Shown here piece after piece: positions 5,572 through 62,269 of a DNA stretch of 64,000 nucleotides. The stretch is taken from NCBI GenBank assembly GCA_019747905.1, contig JAIEQG010000013.1, forward strand, positions 50,482 through 114,481, written 5' to 3'. This DNA comes from Burkholderiales bacterium. Lineage in GTDB: Bacteria > Pseudomonadota > Gammaproteobacteria > Burkholderiales > Ga0077523. A program made the translations under genes and the position numbers. Position 1 is the first letter of the stretch, and each line of letters starts with the position of its first letter. Below the pieces are notes generated by a model. The model ran no database searches. It had not been told where the DNA came from and saw nothing but the letters and a program-made list of their open reading frames with translations.

Positions 5572-6102
5572 TCAGCGCCGCGACACTGCCGACGATGCGT
5601 CCAGGTGGCGGCCAAGGATGGCGAGGTCGCGCGGCTGTCCGTCGAGCAATGCCACGCCCGGGAGCCAGCCCCAGGGCTCGAACTCGTAGCGGCTGAACAG
5701 CGCGACGCTGGCGACGTTGTGGCCGAACACGAACGCGAGCAGGGTCCGGATTCCGAGGGCGGGCGCCTGGGCCAGGGCTTCGCCCACCAGGAAGGCGCCG
5801 AGCCCCTGGCCTCGATTGCGTTCGTCCACGTACACGCTGACTTCCACGGTGCCGCCGTAGGCCGGCCGACCGTAGAACGACGACAGTGAAAGCCATCCGC
5901 GCACCTCGCCGTCGATGTCGACGACCCACAGGGGCCGGCGACCCGGTTCGTGTTCGCTGAACCATTCGATGCGGCTCTCGACGCTGACCGGTTCCAGGTC
6001 CGCCGTCGCCACGCGCGAGGGAATGGTCGCGTTGTAGATGTCTACGATGCGCGGCAAGTCACCGATCACTGCGTCGCGACGGAGAAAACGCTCGGCAGTC
6101 AC
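5572..6102 (-). CDS. GNAT family N-acetyltransferase (phosphinothricin-acetyltransferase-like)
   Basis: The GTG start at 6102 overlaps the stop of the upstream gene (GTGA). Sequence VTAERFLRRDAVIGDLPRIVDIYNATIPSRVATADLEPVSVESRIEWF...VDERNRGQGLGAFLVGEAL. The first roughly 130 codons of track ORF 5572..6492 are a spurious extension. Confidence 0.85.
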   Translation of the reverse strand: MTAERFLRRDAVIGDLPRIVDIYNATIPSRVATADLEPVSVESRIEWFSEHEPGRRPLWVVDIDGEVRGWLSLSSFYGRPAYGGTVEVSVYVDERNRGQGLGAFLVGEALAQAPALGIRTLLAFVFGHNVASVALFSRYEFEPWGWLPGVALLDGQPRDLAILGRHLDASSAVSRR

Positions 6103-41937: not shown

Positions 41938-42342
41938 TCAGGCTCCGGTCGCGTCCAACCGCGAGCGCACGTCTTCGACGCGCTTGCGGTTGACGCCGAA
42001 GTCGCTGTGACCCACGCGCGAAGCCGAACGCACGTGCACGATCTTCTGGCCGCTCGGCAGCCAGAACTCCACGTCGTCGACGAAACCCAGCAACGCGGAT
42101 TGGTACTCGGCGTAGAGGTAGTCGTTGGTCTGGGAAACGATCTGCGTACGCGGGGTGGCGCGAACGATCTCGGCGATTGCCTCGAGCGCGGCTTCCGGCG
42201 TGGTCTTGTAAGTGAGCGGCGGAATCGAGTGGGTCGAATCCGGCGCCTGGCTGCTGACGCCGTTGGGTGAACTCGGCGCGGGCTTCAACTTGCCGTCGCG
42301 CACGCCGAGGTCGGTGGGGCGTTTGCCGCTGAGCAGGCCCAT
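41938..42342 (-). CDS. DUF1499-like protein
   Basis: ATG at 42342. Sequence ...YAEYQSALLGFVDDVEFWLPSGQKIVHVRSASRVGHSDFGVNRKRVEDVRSRL. It starts 5 nt after the GST gene. Confidence 0.7.
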   Translation of the reverse strand: MGLLSGKRPTDLGVRDGKLKPAPSSPNGVSSQAPDSTHSIPPLTYKTTPEAALEAIAEIVRATPRTQIVSQTNDYLYAEYQSALLGFVDDVEFWLPSGQKIVHVRSASRVGHSDFGVNRKRVEDVRSRLDATGA

Positions 42343-42347
42343 GACGA

Positions 42348-42968
42348 TCAACTCGCCGAGGGGTTCATGCCGCGCTGCACCGCAGGCCGCGCGGCCATGG
42401 TAGCAGCCCAACGCTGCAGGTTGGCGAGGCCTCCAGCCGAGTCCAGCAGCGCCTTGCGCGCCACGAAACCTGGATAGAGCATCACGTCCGCGACGCTGAT
42501 CTCGCCCGCGAGGAAATCGCGCCCTTCGAGCTGCCGATCGCAGTCGCGGAAGAAGTTCACCAGCCGCTTCTGGAAGTACTCCGAATTGCCTGGCGTCTTG
42601 TCGGGAATCGAGTTGTCGATGCGGAACAACGCACCGCTGGTGCCAGCGACGTCGCTCGTCGCCTGCATCAGCCATTGCAGGGCGATGCATCGGGTGAGCG
42701 GGTCCTTGGGCACGAGGCGCCCGGTCTTCTCGGCGGCGTACAGGATGATCGCGGCCGATTGGGTCAGCGTGAACGGCTTGCCGCCGGGGCCGTCGGAATC
42801 GACGATCGCCGGAATCATTCCCGCCGGATTCACCTTGAGATACTCGGGCGTGCGACTCTCGCCCTTCGCGAGGTCGAGCTTGTGCAGACGGTAGGGCAGG
42901 CCGCACTCTTCCATCGCCAGCGTGGCTCGATAGCCGTTGGCAGTCGGCCCAAAGTACAAGTCGATCAT
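42348..42968 (-). CDS. glutathione S-transferase
   Basis: MIDLYFGPTANGYRATLAMEECGLPYRLHKLDLAKGESRTPEYLKVNPAGMIPAIVD...LTQSAAIILYAAEK. Confidence 0.9.
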   Translation of the reverse strand: MIDLYFGPTANGYRATLAMEECGLPYRLHKLDLAKGESRTPEYLKVNPAGMIPAIVDSDGPGGKPFTLTQSAAIILYAAEKTGRLVPKDPLTRCIALQWLMQATSDVAGTSGALFRIDNSIPDKTPGNSEYFQKRLVNFFRDCDRQLEGRDFLAGEISVADVMLYPGFVARKALLDSAGGLANLQRWAATMAARPAVQRGMNPSAS

Positions 42969-53700: not shown

Positions 53701-54483
53701 ATGTTGAAGGGCAGATCGGCGATCGTCACCGGCAGCACCAGTGGCATCGGTCTGGGAATCGCGCAGGCGCTCGCGGCGCAAGGCGCGAACGTCCTCCTGA
53801 ACGGGTTCGGCAACGTGCCGGAGATCAAGAAGCTCGCGGCCCGCATGGAGTCCGAGCACGGCGTCAAGGTGATCTACTCGGGAGCCGACATGAGCCGGCC
53901 GGCCGAGATCCAGACCATGGTGGCCGAGGCCGCGAGCCAACTGGGCAGCGTCGACATCCTGGTCAACAACGCCGGCATCCAGCACGTGGCGCCGGTGGAC
54001 GAATTCCCTCTCGACAAGTGGGACCAGATCATCGCCATCAACCTGACCGCTTCGTTCCACACCATCCGTGCGGCGCTGCCGCACATGAAGAAGCACGGCT
54101 GGGGGCGCATCGTGAACATCGCCTCCGCGCACGGACTGGTCGCTTCGCCGTTCAAGTCGGCCTACATCGCGGCCAAGCACGGCGTGGTCGGGCTCACCAA
54201 GACCGTCGCGCTGGAAACGGCGAAGCTCCCCATCACGTGCAACGCGATCTGCCCTGGCTACGTGCGCACGCCGCTGGTGGAAAAGCAGATCGACGACCAG
54301 GCCAAGGCGCACAACATCCCGCGCGACGAAGTCATCGAACGCATCCTCCTCGAGCGTCAGCCATCGAAGCGTTTCGTCGCAGTCGACGAGGTCGCCGCGC
54401 TGGCGCTCTTCCTGTGCAGCGAGGGCGCCGCAGGGATCACCGGCGCGGCTCTCCCGATCGACGGGGGTTGGGTCGCGCAGTAA
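53701..54483 (+). CDS. bdhA: 3-hydroxybutyrate dehydrogenase (SDR family)
   Basis: LKGRSAIVTGSTSGIGLGIAQALAAQGANV...NNAGIQHVAPVDEFPLDKWD...SAYIAAKHGVVGLTK...CPGYVRTPLVEKQI. Confidence 0.85.
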   Translation: MLKGRSAIVTGSTSGIGLGIAQALAAQGANVLLNGFGNVPEIKKLAARMESEHGVKVIYSGADMSRPAEIQTMVAEAASQLGSVDILVNNAGIQHVAPVDEFPLDKWDQIIAINLTASFHTIRAALPHMKKHGWGRIVNIASAHGLVASPFKSAYIAAKHGVVGLTKTVALETAKLPITCNAICPGYVRTPLVEKQIDDQAKAHNIPRDEVIERILLERQPSKRFVAVDEVAALALFLCSEGAAGITGAALPIDGGWVAQ

Positions 54484-55911
54484 CTACGTGGTATCGCGCC
54501 GCGGGCGGTTCAGGTGCGCGATTGCATTGGCGTAGTAGGCAAGCAGTCCGGTCTCGTCGGGGTTGGCGCGCACCAGGCCGTCCTCCTCAAGCACGAGGTG
54601 GCGCAGCACCAGCATGCGCAGCCCCACTTCGATGGCGTAGTCGCGGTCCTTGCGTGGCACGTAGATGCGGGCACCGCGCCGTTCCAGCTCCTCGTTGCGC
54701 GCCAGGGCGCGCGCCTTCAGTTCCAGCACGCTCAAGGCTTGTCCGCCCGCCTCGAGCATGATCGAGGCGACGAGGGAAACGGGCAGCACGGGAATGACGT
54801 CCTCAAGCCGGTCCATGAGTTCGCGGCCGAGAGTCTCCACGGCTGCGTGGCGTTCGGATTCCGGCATAGACCGGAACACGGTGCCGTGATCGCGACACCA
54901 CGCCCGCATCGACAGCGGGGTGCCGAAGTTGACGCAGGCGTAGCCGTAGCGATACCAGCGACCGGTCAGGAACTGCAGTACGTTGCGTCCCATGAAGCCC
55001 GCGGTCGTGAGACCGGCACCGGCAATGCCGCGCCGCCGAGCCTCGGGGTCGAGCTTGCGTTGCAGGGTCCGATCCTCCAGCACCCGGTCGTAGTTGATGC
55101 CTACAGGGATGAACACGAGATCCCGTGCGCCTTCCGCATCGAAGCCGCGCACCATGTAGTCGATCAGGCCGAGCTTGGGGCTGCGCAGTTTTCCGTCGAT
55201 GCTCAAGCCGCCCTCGGGGAACACCGCCTGGGTGACCCCTGCCTCGGTCGCCATCCGCACATAGCGCTGCAGCACCGTCCGGTACAGCGGGTCGCCGGAG
55301 TTGCGGCGCACGAAGTAGGCGCCCATCGCCTTCACCAAGGCCTGCAGGGGCCACACCCGCGCCCATTCGCCGACCGCGTAGGACAGCGCAGCGCGCTCCG
55401 CGGCCAGGAAGGCCACCAGGATGTAGTCGAAATTCGACCGATGATTGATGACGAACACCACCGTCGATTGGCGCTGCACGCCGGCGAGGCCCGCTTCGTC
55501 GACGTAGCCCAGGCGCACGCGATACAGCGAGCGCGCGATCGCTTTCGCCAGCCAGTACCCGATCCGGAAATACAGATACGCGTTGAACGAAGGCACGATC
55601 TCGCGCGCATACCGCTCCACCCGCCGGCGCACCGCCAGCAGCGATTCGCCGTTGTCCCGTGACTGCCGCTCCGCTGCCGCCTGCACCACGTCGTCGTGGA
55701 ACAGGCGGTCGATCAGGACCTGGCGTCGCGTGATCTTGAACGGCGGAATCTCGACCTGCAGTTTCGAGCCGAGATCCTGCAGCACGCGGTTGACCTTGCG
55801 CTGCACGTACCAGCGTGCCGTGGGGCGCACCAGAAGGTCGAGCGCGGCGAGTGCGGCCAGGATGCACAGCACGAGGAAGAACCACAGCGGAACGCTGATG
55901 CTGCCGCTCAA
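54484..55911 (-). CDS. membrane-anchored glycerol-3-phosphate / lysophospholipid acyltransferase family protein
   Basis: TTG start. An N-terminal TM helix is present. The acyltransferase HX4D motif is VFVINHRSNFDYIL, and a second family motif is AVFPEGGLS. The stop abuts the bdhA stop with a 0-nt gap. Confidence 0.85.
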   Translation of the reverse strand: MSGSISVPLWFFLVLCILAALAALDLLVRPTARWYVQRKVNRVLQDLGSKLQVEIPPFKITRRQVLIDRLFHDDVVQAAAERQSRDNGESLLAVRRRVERYAREIVPSFNAYLYFRIGYWLAKAIARSLYRVRLGYVDEAGLAGVQRQSTVVFVINHRSNFDYILVAFLAAERAALSYAVGEWARVWPLQALVKAMGAYFVRRNSGDPLYRTVLQRYVRMATEAGVTQAVFPEGGLSIDGKLRSPKLGLIDYMVRGFDAEGARDLVFIPVGINYDRVLEDRTLQRKLDPEARRRGIAGAGLTTAGFMGRNVLQFLTGRWYRYGYACVNFGTPLSMRAWCRDHGTVFRSMPESERHAAVETLGRELMDRLEDVIPVLPVSLVASIMLEAGGQALSVLELKARALARNEELERRGARIYVPRKDRDYAIEVGLRMLVLRHLVLEEDGLVRANPDETGLLAYYANAIAHLNRPRRDTT

Positions 55912-56028
55912 GGTTCGCGTCGACTACCGGGAAAGGGTCGGGCCGCATGGTAACGCGGAGCGCGTCGGACCAAAGCACGCCGGCCGCCGCGGTGTCACCC
56001 GCGGCGGCCGGGGCTCGGGAGGCGTGGC

Positions 56029-56313
56029 TTACAGGTGCGAGGCGAGAATCGACTGCGCGCTGCGCGGCTCGATGGCCGGATGCGTGTGGATGGTCACCAC
56101 GGCCGGCTCGGCGCCGGTCGCATCGCGGCGGAACACGATCACGGCGGGGTGATCGCCGTTGTTGTTCACGTCACGCGAGAAGCCGTGGGCCGGATGCAGG
56201 TAGAAGCGCATCGTCTGCTCGTACGTGCCGGCCTGATTGATCGTGTCGGACGCCTGAGCGGTCGAGGCTGCGAAGGCCGAAACAAGAGCGGCTGCAAGAA
56301 GCAAGCGGTTCAT
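56029..56313 (-). CDS. small exported hypothetical protein (94 aa)
   Basis: ATG at 56313 with AGGAG 7 nt upstream. The signal peptide is MNRLLLAAALVSAFAASTAQA. The upstream part of track ORF 56029..56499 is a non-coding extension. Confidence 0.6.
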   Translation of the reverse strand: MNRLLLAAALVSAFAASTAQASDTINQAGTYEQTMRFYLHPAHGFSRDVNNNGDHPAVIVFRRDATGAEPAVVTIHTHPAIEPRSAQSILASHL

Positions 56314-56384
56314 GGTGATCTCCTGTGGTCGATACGTGGTTGGAAATGTTCTCGAGGGCGGTTCGCCGTCGGTGCGCTGCCTGT

Positions 56385-56400
56385 CGCACCACGCGTGCCA
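56385..56400 (-). promoter_or_regulatory. sigma-54 (-24/-12) promoter candidate for the small exported protein gene
   Basis: The minus strand reads TGGCACGCGTGGTGCG. GG and GC have the canonical spacing of TGGCACG-N4-TTGC, with a single departure (GTGC for TTGC). It lies about 70 nt upstream of the ATG at 56313 and directly downstream of a sigma-54 activator gene. Confidence 0.55.
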
Positions 56401-56417
56401 GTCGAGAATCTTGAAAT

Positions 56418-56551
56418 CGATCAACAAGTTGATCGGAATCGCCGAGAACGACCCCGCGGCGATTCGTTGGGCCTGCCCAACACGCCATGCCGGGGGCATG
56501 GGCTAAGTCATTGTCGGTGCGCGATACCCGCTTGTTGGGCGCACCCAACAA
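56418..56551. promoter_or_regulatory. cluster of four dyad-symmetric sites upstream of the -24/-12 element (candidate enhancer/UAS)
   Basis: The four dyads are CGATCAAC-aa-GTTGATCG (56418-56435), GTTGGGC-ct-GCCCAAC (56465-56480), CCATGCC-ggg-GGCATGG (56484-56500) and CTTGTTGGG-cgca-CCCAACAAG (56530-56551). Two of them share the half-site GTTGGG. Confidence 0.35.
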
Positions 56552-56557
56552 GTCGAT

Positions 56558-57915
<1,358 letters not shown>

Positions 57916-57919
<4 letters not shown>

Positions 57920-58296
57920 GTCGGTGCGCCGTCGGTGCCCAGCTGTCGGGCGATCGCATCGAGCAGCACCTTGAACTCGATCGGCTTCACGAGATAGTCA
58001 TTCGCACCTTGCGCGAGGCGCGCGGCACGCTCCGAATGGTCGGCGCTCGCCGTCATGAAGATGAACGGCATGCGTACGGTGCGTGGGTCGGCCCGCAAGG
58101 CGGCGAGCACGGCGTCGCCGTCCATCTCCGGCATGCGCAGGTCGCACAGGATGAGGTCCGGTTCGCGCGTCCGGGCGAGCCGCAGTCCGTCCAGGCCGTT
58201 GATGGCGGTCAACACCTCGAACCCCTCGAGTGTCAGCACGCGGGCGTAGTTCGCCAGGATCGACGAGTCGTTCTCGATCAGCAGGATCTTATGCAC
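57916..58296 (-). CDS. single-domain (CheY-like) response regulator
   Basis: The GTG start overlaps the kinase stop by 8 nt. Sequence [13 protein letters not shown]...[14 protein letters not shown]...FIFMTASAD...DYLVKP. Confidence 0.9.
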
Positions 58297-60379
58297 GGGA
58301 CCCGCCGCCGATTTCGGGAATGACGACGGTGAACTTGGAGCCCTCGCGCGGCGCGCTGCTCACCGCGATGCGGCCACCGTGCAGTTCCACCGATTTGCGC
58401 ACGATCGCGAGTCCGAGCCCGGCGCCGGCAATGTGGTTGACGTTGCGCCCGCGATGGAAGGTCTCGAAGAGCCGCGCCTGGTCCTCGATCGGAATGCCGA
58501 TGCCGCGATCCTCCACTTCGAGCAGGATCTCGCGGCCGTCGCAGACCACCCGCACGTCGACGGTCGACTCGGTGGGCGAATACTTGATGGCGTTGGTGAG
58601 CAGATTGCCGAGAATGTGCCGGAGCAGTTCTTCATCGACGACGTGCTCGGCACCCACGTTCTCGAACCGCAGGAGCACTTGCTGCTCGGCGTGAGCTGCG
58701 GCTCGCGTTTCATCGACGATGCGCTGGCACAGCGCTCGCAGATCGAGCCGTCGTGGACGAAACTCCAGCCGCCCGGCTTCGGAGCGACCGATCAGGAGAA
58801 TGTCCTCGAGCATGCGGGTCATGCGTTGGACCGCACCCTTGATGCCACCGATGAGATCGGCCCGCTCGCGTTCCGTGAGGCGTTCGCCGTAGTCGGCCAG
58901 CAGTTCGGTCGACGACAGGATGGTCGCGAGCGGGGTGCGGAACTCATGCGAGGTCATCGACACGAAACGCGACTTGAGCTCGTTCAACTCCTTCTCGCGC
59001 GCCAGCGCATCCACCAGTTCCGCCTCCGCGGCCTTGCGCCGCGACAGATCCACCACGGTCCAGATGGTCCCCACGTTGAGGTCGCGCCGATCGATCGCGC
59101 AGCCGCTCACCAGGCACCAGAACGTGGATCCATCCTTGCGCCGCACCCGGCCTTCGGTGGTGAACAAGCCCTTGTCCACGAGCTGGCGGTTGATGACCGG
59201 GCCGAGTTCGTCGTAAGCCTCCGGGGAGCCATAGGTGTGGCGCACGGACTGGCCCACCAGCTCCCCTGCCCGATAGCCCAGCATGTCGCACTCGAAGTGC
59301 TGGTTGACCCAGACGTACTCCCGATTGCGCACCAGGGCGATCCCGATCACCGACGACTGCAGGATGGCCTCGCGCTCCGACAGCGTGCGGCGCAGATCCT
59401 CTTCGAGCTTGCGGCGGGAGGTGATGTCCATCAGCACCCAGATGCTGCCCAAGGCCGGATCGTCGGACTGGATCGCCCGGCCGCTGATCAGGCACCAGAA
59501 CAGGGAGCCGTCGCTCCGCTTCATGCGTGCGCGTGTCTCGTAGATGCGGCCCTGCGCGAGCAGCGGATAGGCTTCGGCGCCGAGGCGCTCGTAGTCCTCG
59601 CGCGACGGATAGAGCATCGCGGTGTTCTTGCCGGTCAGCGAACCCCGGGGGTAGCCGAAGAGGTGCTCCTCCAGCATGCGGTTGCACCACTCCAGGCGGC
59701 GGTTGCGCAGCAGGCCGATGCCGACCACGGAGTGCTCCAGGATGGCGGTCTTCTCGGCGAGTGCCACCTGAAGGCGTTCCTCGCTGTGCCGCAGCGCATC
59801 GTCGGCCGCCGTCAACTCGGCGAGCTTCTGCGTGAGCTCGGCGGTGCGCTCCGCGATGCGTTGCTCGAGGTCGCGGTTGAGTGCCTCGATCTCGGCCTTG
59901 CTGCGTCGGCTTTCGCTGATGTCCGAAAAGGTCACGACCGCGAACTTGCGGCCGTCGGCCCGCGTGATCGGTCGGAAGCTCACCAGCGAATCGAAGACGC
60001 TGCCGTCGCTGCGGCGAATACCCCATTCGAGCGGAATCTTCGGCGAATCCGCGAACAGGGCCGCGAGGAACTTCTCCTTCACCGCCACGACGCTGGGCGG
60101 GGCGCTCATCGAATAGTGCTGGCCGATGAGGTCTTCCGGTCGATGCCGGACCAGTTCGCAGAAGAACGGGTTGACGCGCACGAACCGGCCCTGCTCGTCG
60201 ATCACGCAGATGCCGATTCGAGCGACGTCGAACACGGTCGCGTACAAATCGAGATCGAGTTGATCGAGGTCCACGGCGGGCTGCGGGCGCTGGTGACGGC
60301 TGTCCGGTCGGCGAGGAGCCGCATTATCCTCCCGTCGCGCCGGGCCCGCGGCCGATCGATGCGGGCCGCCGGCGCCCAC
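58289..60379 (-). CDS. cytoplasmic multi-PAS sensor histidine kinase (start uncertain)
   Basis: There are three PAS-like segments and a coiled-coil linker. The H-box is SRFVSMTSHEFRTPL. The HATPase motifs are LLTNAIKYS, DRGIGIP and GAGLGLAI. No TM segments were seen. The candidate GTG at 60379 has GGAG 7 nt upstream. The track start at 60550 would overlap the divergent hydrolase gene. Confidence 0.85.
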   Translation of the reverse strand: MGAGGPHRSAAGPARREDNAAPRRPDSRHQRPQPAVDLDQLDLDLYATVFDVARIGICVIDEQGRFVRVNPFFCELVRHRPEDLIGQHYSMSAPPSVVAVKEKFLAALFADSPKIPLEWGIRRSDGSVFDSLVSFRPITRADGRKFAVVTFSDISESRRSKAEIEALNRDLEQRIAERTAELTQKLAELTAADDALRHSEERLQVALAEKTAILEHSVVGIGLLRNRRLEWCNRMLEEHLFGYPRGSLTGKNTAMLYPSREDYERLGAEAYPLLAQGRIYETRARMKRSDGSLFWCLISGRAIQSDDPALGSIWVLMDITSRRKLEEDLRRTLSEREAILQSSVIGIALVRNREYVWVNQHFECDMLGYRAGELVGQSVRHTYGSPEAYDELGPVINRQLVDKGLFTTEGRVRRKDGSTFWCLVSGCAIDRRDLNVGTIWTVVDLSRRKAAEAELVDALAREKELNELKSRFVSMTSHEFRTPLATILSSTELLADYGERLTERERADLIGGIKGAVQRMTRMLEDILLIGRSEAGRLEFRPRRLDLRALCQRIVDETRAAAHAEQQVLLRFENVGAEHVVDEELLRHILGNLLTNAIKYSPTESTVDVRVVCDGREILLEVEDRGIGIPIEDQARLFETFHRGRNVNHIAGAGLGLAIVRKSVELHGGRIAVSSAPREGSKFTVVIPEIGGGSRA

Positions 60380-60403: not shown

Positions 60404-61381
60404 ATGACGATCCACTGGCTGGCGGCCCGAGGGCGGGCGCTGCTGTTTGCGATGTTGCTTCCCATGGGCAATCCCGCCGGCGTCGCCGCGGAAGAGTCGA
60501 CTGTGTCCGCGGCGACGCATTGGGTGCCGCGCGGCGACTACCGCTTGCACGTCTGGGAGAAGTACGTGGGTTCACCCGCGGGCAAACCGGTCGTGGTGCT
60601 TGCTCACGGTTCCGCCACGGCCGGCAAGGAAAGTTTCGATCTGGCGGTGCCGGGGCGGAAGGACTACAGCCTGATGGACCGCTTTGCGCGCGCGGGCTTC
60701 GACGTGTTCGCACTGGACGTACATGGCTTCGGCCGCTCGACCCACCCCGAAGGCTACGTCACCACCGAAGGTGCCGCCGAGGATCTCGACGCCGTCGTCG
60801 ATGCCGTGCGACGCGAGCGCGGCGTGGCCCGCGTCCACGTGATCGCCTGGTCCTGGGCCACGCAGTACGCAGGGCTCTTCGTTTCAGCTCACGGCGACAA
60901 GGTCGACCGCTATGTGAGCTACGCGCAGATGCATGCCGATAGCCCCGACATCGTGCGGCGTCGCGCGGATCTCGAGCTGTATCGGAGCCGGCCGTGGATC
61001 GTCGTGCCGCGCGACGGCTGGAAAGCACGGTTCCGCTCGCTGACCCCCACCGAGGTTACCGAACCGGACGCGATGGAAGCGTTTGCCGATGCCGCCGCGG
61101 CCATCGAGACGCGCACTTCCACCGGCCCGCAACTGGATATGGTGACCCGCCTGCCCATGGTGGATCCGACCCGCATCGCGGTACCGACGCTGATGATCCA
61201 TGGGCAGTACGACGACGTCGCCGATACGGCCGGGCTGCTGCCGTTCTTCGTGCGCCTGCCGAACCCCGACAAACGCTACGTCGTCATTCCGCGTGCCGGG
61301 CACATGATGCATCTGCAGGTCGGGCGGCGGGCGTTCTTCGATGCCGTGATGGATTTCCTGATGGCAGACGCGCCGCGTTAG
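60404..61381 (+). CDS. alpha/beta-fold hydrolase (exported)
   Basis: This is the C-terminal third of track ORF 58379..61381. ATG at 60404. The leader is MTIHWLAARGRALLFAMLLPMGNPAGVAAEE. Sequence VVVLAHGSAT...VHVIAWSWATQY (nucleophile-elbow-like)...IHGQYDDV...AGHMMHL. Confidence 0.8.
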   Translation: MTIHWLAARGRALLFAMLLPMGNPAGVAAEESTVSAATHWVPRGDYRLHVWEKYVGSPAGKPVVVLAHGSATAGKESFDLAVPGRKDYSLMDRFARAGFDVFALDVHGFGRSTHPEGYVTTEGAAEDLDAVVDAVRRERGVARVHVIAWSWATQYAGLFVSAHGDKVDRYVSYAQMHADSPDIVRRRADLELYRSRPWIVVPRDGWKARFRSLTPTEVTEPDAMEAFADAAAAIETRTSTGPQLDMVTRLPMVDPTRIAVPTLMIHGQYDDVADTAGLLPFFVRLPNPDKRYVVIPRAGHMMHLQVGRRAFFDAVMDFLMADAPR

Positions 61382-61408: not shown

Positions 61409-62110
61409 TCAGGTGCGGCCGATGTCTCGCGATCGCCGTAGCCCGATGCCGGCCAGAAGCACCAGACCGCCGGACAGCAGCGCCCAGGTGCCGGGTTCGG
61501 GGATCGGCGCCGCAGCCCACGTCAGGTCGACCCGTACATGCGGGTCCCCGGTGCGGGCACACACGGCGCGACCGCAATCCGCAGCGCCGCTGACGCTCAG
61601 GACGAGGTCGGCGCTGAAGAACAGCGTCGGAGAGGGCAGTCCGACGGTGGCGGGTGGGAAAGCACCTTCGGTATTCTGGTTCCACGTGATATTGAATATG
61701 GTGGGAAAAGTGCCGCTCGCATCGGCGGCTGGCCCGGGGGTTAGGGCGACCCAGGTGCCTCCCACGCTGTAGCCGCCCTCCCAGGCCTCCGAGGGGGCGG
61801 CGCCGCTGACCGTCATGCCCGTAAGGGTGTAGCCGGGCTTGGCATCGAACCGTGCACTGGTGTGTAGGGTGACGGAATTGCTCTGCGAGGCCCCGACTTC
61901 CAGGAGGAACGGCGTTGCCGTCGAGAACCTGGTTGTCTGAGCGTTGTTGAGCACGATTCCGAAATCCGAATCCGGCTGGGACACCGTTACCGTGTAGAAC
62001 GGCGTCTCCGAGAACAGCACGATGGCGTGAGTGGAGGGCGACGCAGCGAGTACGAAGCAGCCAGCCGCAAGGGCGGCGCAAGCGGAGCGGGTGTGGCGAG
62101 CAGGACGCAT
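61409..62110 (-). CDS. PEP-CTERM sorting-domain protein
   Basis: ATG at 62110 after AAGAGGA. The signal peptide is ACAALAAGCFVLAASPSTHA. The C-terminus IPEPGTWALLSGGLVLLAGIGLRRSR has the PEP motif, a TM helix and a basic tail. Confidence 0.8.
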   Translation of the reverse strand: MRPARHTRSACAALAAGCFVLAASPSTHAIVLFSETPFYTVTVSQPDSDFGIVLNNAQTTRFSTATPFLLEVGASQSNSVTLHTSARFDAKPGYTLTGMTVSGAAPSEAWEGGYSVGGTWVALTPGPAADASGTFPTIFNITWNQNTEGAFPPATVGLPSPTLFFSADLVLSVSGAADCGRAVCARTGDPHVRVDLTWAAAPIPEPGTWALLSGGLVLLAGIGLRRSRDIGRT

Positions 62111-62269
62111 GACGATCCTCTTGGGGTCGAACCACAGCCGGGCGGTGGATGCCAATGGATTCCCATGACAATGGAATCGCATTCGCTACCGTGCGGCGAC
62201 TATAACAAGGAATCGTCGACGGGCAACCGGATCTTGGCGATTCGGGAGAATTTCGGCCCGGCGCGGCTC

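Follow-up and report, generated by a model that had tools for sequence, protein, structure and literature searches.

A conserved sigma-54-type promoter element is the probable output of a GlrR-like signalling operon beside a small exported protein gene in a Burkholderiales bacterium

We find that the -24/-12 element TGGCACGCGTGGTGCG, at 56385..56400 on the minus strand of the window (the whole 64-kb stretch of Burkholderiales DNA that was analysed), is very probably a functional sigma-54 promoter that serves the signalling operon of three genes located immediately upstream as its dedicated output. We put the probability of this reading, which is drawn from the sequence and its conservation, at about 85%. 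The operon encodes a PAS kinase, a CheY-like receiver, and a sigma-54 activator, and is followed by a small ORF with a signal peptide; this gene order, all on the minus strand, had been proposed in a previous sequence-only reading of the window and is confirmed here. The self-contained circuit that had been proposed with it holds in so far as every one of its elements was found at the sequence level and is conserved, whereas the description of the promoter as strong is not borne out by its score.

The element agrees with the motif TGGCACG-N4-TTGC that had been recognized at 56385-56400, with a GG-GC spacing of 10 nt and a single mismatch, a G replacing the first T of TTGC. The -12 region in the window is GTGC, not TTGC. 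It is the sole match with at most one mismatch in the 64-kb window, for which dinucleotide-preserving shuffles (66% GC) give approximately 2.0 such matches by chance. Against TGGCAC-N5-TTGC, the element scores 10/12 with the correct spacing, and two sites within coding sequence of the window tie with it. With about two chance matches expected per window and two intragenic ties at 10/12, the consensus score cannot be used as proof of a promoter, nor does it justify calling the promoter strong. Since the consensus match alone is not above chance, the significance of the element rests on its position and its conservation.

Regarding position, the element ends 72 nt upstream of the ATG of the small gene at 56313, on the same strand, and starts 158 nt past the stop codon of the activator gene at 56558, in agreement with the distances given earlier. 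The predicted transcription start is near 56374. The element thus lies upstream of a gene and is oriented toward it, an arrangement that fits a sigma-54 promoter and requires no sigma-70 promoter; no sigma-70-like promoter was detected in 55800-56700. An activator with a GAFTGA motif is encoded by the adjacent gene, and candidate enhancers, two palindromes at about -100 and -168, fall in the range of ~80-200 bp upstream expected for such a promoter. No RpoN box is encoded within the 64-kb window. Exact matches to the shorter core TGGCAY-N6-TGC also occur on the minus strand at 42631-42645, in the ORF 41938-42906 (minus strand), and at 58833-58847, in the kinase gene. These two are probably not promoters, because about 1.3 matches are expected by chance and both lie under long ORFs.

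The conservation of the element was assessed in comparison loci, designated here by L-numbers, which are metagenomic or MAG sequences, as are the sources of all relatives. In eight divergent lineages, a TGGCAY-N6-TGC element precedes the ATG of the small-gene orthologue by 67-91 nt, and this core is invariant across all eight. It stays unchanged while the identity of the small proteins falls through 89%, 79%, 60%, and 42% and the intergenic flanks diverge. In the intergenic alignments (A2, A4), four islands of identity stand out amid diverged DNA, namely palindrome 1, palindrome 2, the block TGGCAC..(G/C)TGC, and the Shine-Dalgarno sequence with the ATG. Equivalent -24/-12 elements are present in L009, L016, L018, and L023, of which the last three cannot be aligned with the window and carry TGGCAT-N5-TTGC elements 67-77 nt before the ATG. 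The promoter element is preceded in each lineage by a pair of 18-bp palindromes (TGTY-N10-RACA) with a spacing of 67-68 bp. L016 has TGGCATCGTCCTTGCG 76 nt before the ATG, with sites TGTCTGGCCAGCCAGACA and TGGTGGGCTAGGCCGACA 68 bp apart, and L018 has TGGCATCGAAATTGCC 71 nt before the ATG, with sites TGTCGGGCTACCCCAACA and TGTTGGGCGAGCCCGACA 67 bp apart. L023 (2900-3124) has TGGCATAGCGATTGCT 67 nt before the ATG, TGTTGTGCACTCACAACA 82 nt further upstream, and, after another 68 nt, a degenerate second site. By chance, TGGCAY-N6-TGC is expected at a rate of about 1e-5 per position, corresponding to ~1.3 matches per 128 kb scanned and ~0.003 per 250-nt upstream region. Coincidence is therefore ruled out by the constant distance at which the element recurs in eight lineages, no fewer than five of which are effectively independent.

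The sequence-only reading had left it to be checked whether the small gene is conserved next to orthologous activators, and the complete module of PAS kinase, CheY-like receiver, activator, and small gene is indeed found in at least seven lineages (the window, L001/L008, L007, L003/L005, L009, L016, and L018). The small proteins in these loci are 89% (L007), 78-79% (L001/L008), 60% (L003/L005), and 42% (L009) identical to that of the window, and the module is flanked by different genes from locus to locus. L023 encodes a 50%-identical family member, and its upstream gene is an epimerase, not an activator. As enhancer and promoter accompany the small gene in L023 in the absence of an adjacent activator gene, the activator must act there from elsewhere in the genome. 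In L016 (4395-4769), a class I cytochrome c gene (Cytochrome_CBB3) is found between the activator and the promoter with its small gene, and the kinase is much larger, with additional PAS and GAF domains, which hints at a redox or respiratory connection. L004 (1-2653) contains a small gene of the L003 type with its promoter, followed by a PNPase gene instead of the usual neighbours, and represents either a rearrangement or an assembly chimera.

Other loci that encode members of the small-protein family (L010-L012, L014, L015, L017, L019-L021, and L024) show neither an adjacent activator nor a convincing -24/-12 and palindrome module. These module-free loci rule out sigma-54 control as a general feature of the family; the sigma-54 module is a property of one clade. 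L011 and L012 (both 5830-5860), where the sigma-54 module is missing, share the upstream motif TCGGTAAGCGATC, and L014 and L020 have GGCACAGT-N3-GCGCA in common, approximately 90 nt upstream. These motifs may mark other regulatory inputs to the family.

The intergenic region between the small gene and the activator gene is 245 nt long and holds three palindromes. Predicted activator site 1, TGTTGGGTGCGCCCAACA, is a TGTT-N10-AACA palindrome at 56533..56550 (minus strand) centred at about -168, and its position is conserved across lineages. Predicted activator site 2, TGTTGGGCAGGCCCAACG, lies at 56465..56482 (minus strand), 68 bp downstream of site 1 and centred at about -100, and reads TGTT-N10-AACG. 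When the window is searched for TGTTGGG-N4-CCCAACA with up to two mismatches, only these two sites are found in the 64 kb, where 0.16 would be expected. GlrR binds TGTC-N10-GACA sites upstream of sigma-54 promoters, with a requirement for IHF (PMC3045617, PMC4987338), and the E. coli GlrR sites are visible in L022. The sites of the window resemble these in length and in the outer TGT/ACA and differ in the fourth base, while L016 and L018 carry TGTC and GACA halves and L016 has an exact TGTC-N10-GACA. From the homology of the adjacent activator to GlrR and the shared 18-bp outline TGTY-N10-RACA, we infer that this activator binds both predicted sites. In L009 (5755-5850), both half-sites of both copies are shifted from TTGGG..CCCAA to TTGTG..(C/G)ACAA, a concerted change of the kind expected for a site read by a symmetric dimer, and one that implies co-evolution with the activator. 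The HTH of the L009 activator differs at a few positions (VAQAAKLAKRNRSEFY).

The third palindrome, GATCAACTTGTTGATC at 56419..56434, is centred at about -53 and presents ATCAA-N4-TTG on both strands, in the manner of the IHF consensus WATCARXXXXTTR (PMC3045617). It is retained in L007 and L001/L008, and not clearly in L003 or L009. Because of this partial conservation, its assignment as a DNA-bending IHF site is kept tentative.

The sensor of the circuit is predicted to be a soluble histidine kinase with three PAS domains, HisKA, and HATPase_c (Pfam), encoded at 58289..60274 on the minus strand; no 19-residue stretch reaches transmembrane hydrophobicity. The mechanically called ORF extends to 60550, and the orthologues that were compared (L001, L003) begin with VDLDQLDL, equivalent to ~60274, so that the start is probably the GTG near 60274. 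The N-terminal excess of 92 codons is probably not translated, being rich in Arg and Pro and unconserved. The second gene (57916..58296, minus strand) encodes a CheY-like single-domain receiver of 126 aa (Pfam Response_reg, 2.8e-25) with the acceptor Asp D52 in a DLRM motif. The kinase, CheY-like, and activator genes overlap at their stop and start codons.

The third gene (56558..57919, minus strand) encodes a 453-aa enhancer-binding protein of the GlrR family, with a receiver, an AAA+ domain, and a C-terminal HTH (Pfam Response_reg, Sigma54_activat, AAA_lid, and a weak HTH_8). It has an acceptor Asp, D60, in DLRM, a GAFTGA motif at residue 217, and RNRSEFY in its HTH, and no other GAFTGA protein is encoded in the 64-kb window. 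Its best NCBIfam model is GlrR, with 609.8 bits, which is below the equivalog cutoff of 763 (NF011695); ZraR is the second-best model (414 bits for a cutoff of 760) and also the best PDB match. The protein and E. coli GlrR share 56% identity over 441 aa, HTH included, and the HTH segment GNVTxAARxAxRNR(S/T)EFYxLLxRHxLD is common to all activators of the module and to E. coli GlrR. An identification as the PEP-CTERM regulator PrsR was rejected, as the corresponding model gives 346 bits for a cutoff of 503, well under the GlrR score. This identification had been considered because a 257-aa protein ending in a PEP-CTERM sorting motif (Pfam E = 4.6e-5) is encoded two genes upstream of the kinase, at 61409-62182 on the minus strand. 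Elsewhere in the neighbourhood, the acyltransferase gene discussed below faces a convergent gene for a 3-hydroxybutyrate dehydrogenase (53701-54483, plus strand; TIGR01963, above cutoff with 396 bits), and an alpha/beta hydrolase is encoded at ~60641-61381 on the plus strand; together, the dehydrogenase and the hydrolase suggest a polyhydroxybutyrate-related neighbourhood.

The small gene (56029..56313, minus strand) encodes 94 aa, consisting of a predicted signal peptide, MNRLLLAAALVSAFAASTAQA (56251-56313), and a mature part of 73 aa. The case made in the sequence-only reading depended on this ORF being conserved and translated, and this is what we observe: pairwise comparison of orthologues gives dN/dS values of 0.20-0.56 at a dS that reaches 1.7, and the GC3 amounts to 0.84, which indicates a translated gene under purifying selection. 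A Shine-Dalgarno sequence, AGGAG, is present at 56320..56324 (minus strand), 6 nt before the ATG; its AGG is kept in all lineages, and the ATG is conserved across the aligned ones. The signal peptide that had been predicted is likewise recovered, with a charged MNR, a hydrophobic core, LLLAAALVSAFAA, and a C-region STAQA, followed by SD, that contains the AQA cleavage motif. The highest 15-residue hydropathy of the protein, 2.05, is at the N-terminus. By sequence prediction, the protein thus has the positive N-region, hydrophobic core, and A-x-A motif of a Sec signal peptide, and this pattern is kept across the family.

The mature protein contains the motifs FYLHPAHGF, DHPAVIVF, and HTHPAI, and six of its 73 residues are histidines. 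A word-indexed search of 5.8 billion proteins returned 12 relatives, all metagenomic, an exhaustive profile search gave 54 clusters at 50% identity, and a profile search of a large collection gave 511 proteins, all of them unnamed or annotated as hypothetical. The genome matches are MAGs of Betaproteobacteria, Burkholderiales, and Casimicrobiaceae, and the family is nearly restricted to uncultured members of Burkholderiales and Casimicrobiaceae. The block INQAGxYExTMxFYLHPAHxF is nearly invariant, the motifs (E/D)HPAV(I/L)V and HPA(L/I) are usually present, and some members have a duplicated FYxHPA...EHPAV unit. The Casimicrobiaceae members (L011, L012) show only the N-terminal FYLHPAHGF block followed by a low-complexity tail. 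Searches with the small protein of the window gave no match in Pfam-A, NCBIfam, PADLOC, or, by profile search, the PDB, and a family-wide scan of 32 relatives against Pfam and NCBIfam gave only scattered single-member matches, the best with E = 0.0026. AlphaFold2 models are unreliable, with a pLDDT of 55.6 from a 13-sequence alignment and of 59.3 from a 65-sequence alignment, and their secondary structures contradict each other. In isolation, the mature protein is probably disordered.

By analogy with ZraP, our best guess is that the protein might serve as a periplasmic buffer of metal or redox stress, or as a chaperone. The six histidines, the HPA triplets, the likely disorder, and the predicted periplasmic location are hints in this direction. 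Weak hints of the same kind come from the genes that adjoin other family members, which include a cytochrome c gene (L016), katG (L019), and genes for a GST and a ChrR-like cupin (L017, L015). A wider proposal, which we make tentatively and consider doubtful as a whole, is that the 94-aa product may found a new class of small proteins, periplasmic or secreted, which are disordered in isolation and carry His-Pro-Ala repeats (FYLHPAHxF, EHPAVxV, HPAL), with at least 511 members almost confined to uncultured Burkholderiales and Casimicrobiaceae. In one clade, a GlrR-type sigma-54 circuit, rewired so that it answers to a cytoplasmic PAS sensor, would have such a protein as its only dedicated output, and the protein would act as a metal- or redox-stress buffer or chaperone analogous, but unrelated, to ZraP, Spy, and CpxP.

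Whether the small protein is the key product of the promoter has to be weighed against what lies downstream. A GC-rich hairpin at 55980..56011 (minus strand), 18 nt past the stop codon of the small gene, consists of a 13-bp perfect stem followed by CGUGCUUUGG and folds with -42.5 kcal/mol (z = -3.6); it is likely the terminator or 3' stabiliser of the small transcript. Its U-tract is weak and a generic terminator scan did not call it, which leaves room for read-through into the next gene on the same strand, 117 nt downstream of the small gene in the window and in L001/L002. This gene (54484-55911, minus strand) encodes a short (475 aa) homologue of PlsB-like glycerol-3-phosphate acyltransferases, with Acyltransferase and GPAT_C domains and a score far under the PlsB cutoff. 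Read-through into it is possible in this genome. Nevertheless, L003, L009, L016, L018, and L023 have no acyltransferase gene downstream, yet all retain the promoter and the small gene. Since most lineages lack the acyltransferase gene in their module, the small gene is the only output that is conserved. A regulatory RNA would be the other way for the promoter to be real and the small protein not, or not the only, product that matters, given that the well-studied GlrR targets cited here, among them glmY and glmZ of enterobacteria, are all sRNA genes (PMC3045617, PMC4987338). Against this, the leader from the -12 region to the Shine-Dalgarno sequence is poorly conserved, no RNA family, glmY-like or other, was matched at E <= 1 when 55800-56700 was scanned with Rfam, and purifying selection acts on the protein sequence that the ORF encodes. 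We therefore regard a key product other than, or additional to, the small protein as improbable.

The palindromes could also be explained at the RNA level, as hairpins that terminate or stabilise the transcript of the kinase-CheY-activator operon, in which case the -24/-12 match would be silent or served by a distant activator. Site 1 starts 7 nt past the activator stop and, as a perfect inverted repeat of 9 bp around a loop of 4 nt, could conceivably form a hairpin and might also act on the upstream transcript. As a replacement for enhancer function, however, this explanation is highly improbable: there are two copies at a fixed spacing of 67-68 bp, neither followed by a U-tract, and their outline, TGT-N12-ACA, agrees with the experimentally defined site of GlrR, which the adjacent activator resembles in its HTH. 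Moreover, the sites accompany the small gene in L023, where there is no upstream activator gene, and they are separated from the activator by the cytochrome c gene in L016. It would take a still less credible set of circumstances for the -24/-12 match to be a product of chance in GC-rich DNA, with the small gene driven by an unrecognised promoter of the sigma-70 or another type. The number of matches expected per window and the equally scoring intragenic sites would allow for such a chance match, but not for a position and core that are invariant in eight lineages while the neighbouring DNA has diverged or cannot be aligned, and the scan of 55800-56700 for a sigma-70-like promoter was empty.

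In the preferred reading, that of a dedicated sigma-54 output, the soluble triple-PAS kinase would respond to a signal in the cytoplasm, probably a redox cue or a small ligand, by autophosphorylation and would then phosphorylate the GlrR-like activator at Asp60. Through its Asp52, the CheY-only protein might compete for phosphate, acting as a phosphate sink, or form a branch of the pathway. The phosphorylated activator would assemble on the palindromes at about -168 and -100, and the DNA would loop, possibly with the help of IHF at about -53, so that the GAFTGA loops could touch the closed complex of RNA polymerase and sigma-54 on TGGCAC-N5-GTGC and ATP hydrolysis could open the promoter. Transcription starting near 56374 would give a leader of ~61 nt that includes the Shine-Dalgarno sequence, followed by the 94-aa preprotein. 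After Sec export and cleavage behind AQA21, a His-rich and probably disordered protein of 73 aa would be released into the periplasm or secreted, and the hairpin at 56011-55980 would end or stabilise the transcript.

This circuit does not challenge the current understanding of sigma-54 regulation, and it provides a clean comparative case of GlrR-family wiring outside enterobacteria. What has been kept is the DNA-reading head and the geometry of the sites, and what has changed is the sensor, now a soluble PAS kinase with a CheY-only protein, and the target, a protein gene rather than an sRNA. An unnamed family of small secreted proteins also gains a regulatory context, and the conserved enhancer and promoter module is a ready reporter for a search for the inducing signal.

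The closest known system is GlrK/GlrR (QseE/QseF) with glmY/glmZ in Enterobacteriaceae. The likeness extends to the domain order of the activator, its 56% identity and the RNR(S/T)EFY motif of its HTH, to the 18-bp site outline TGTY-N10-RACA, to several sites placed upstream of a -24/-12 promoter, at distances above 80 bp and with an IHF-like site in the interval, and to a target that adjoins the two-component genes. Nevertheless, the kinase here is a soluble triple-PAS protein, whereas GlrK is a membrane kinase, and a CheY-only receiver takes the place of the lipoprotein gene qseG. There are two sites here, with the inner bases GGGC/GCCC, instead of three, and the promoter serves a protein-coding gene that follows the operon instead of an sRNA gene that precedes it. 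The activator also stays under the NCBIfam cutoff for GlrR (609.8 vs 763).

ZraS/ZraR with ZraP, which responds to zinc and envelope stress in E. coli and Salmonella, offers another parallel, as this two-component sigma-54 activator adjoins its main target, a single gene for a small periplasmic protein with a sigma-54 promoter (PMC4987338). Here too, the activator lies beside a single small output, which is predicted to be exported. However, ZraP belongs to the CpxP/Spy/ZraP family, whereas the small protein described here has no match in Pfam, NCBIfam, or the PDB. In addition, zraP is divergent from zraSR, while the genes here are in tandem, and ZraS senses from the membrane and has a periplasmic domain, while the sensor here is cytoplasmic. 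Because of the tandem genes and the cytoplasmic sensor, unlike ZraS, direct periplasmic feedback on the kinase is unlikely.

More generally, the circuit shares with NtrBC, AtoSC, and DctBD the receiver-AAA+-HTH architecture, the GAFTGA motif, and palindromic enhancers located 80-200 bp upstream that act by looping to a -24/-12 promoter. It differs from them in its signal, in the extra CheY-only gene, and in its single small secreted output, with no metabolic operon. The circuit belongs to neither the GlrKR-glmY nor the ZraSR-ZraP system, as its activator stays below the GlrR cutoff, its kinase and accessory genes are different ones, its target is a protein gene instead of an sRNA, and its product is unrelated to ZraP. 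Its architecture is of the ordinary sigma-54 and enhancer-binding type, and what is new about it is the rewiring of the GlrR-like regulator and the uncharacterised protein that forms its output.
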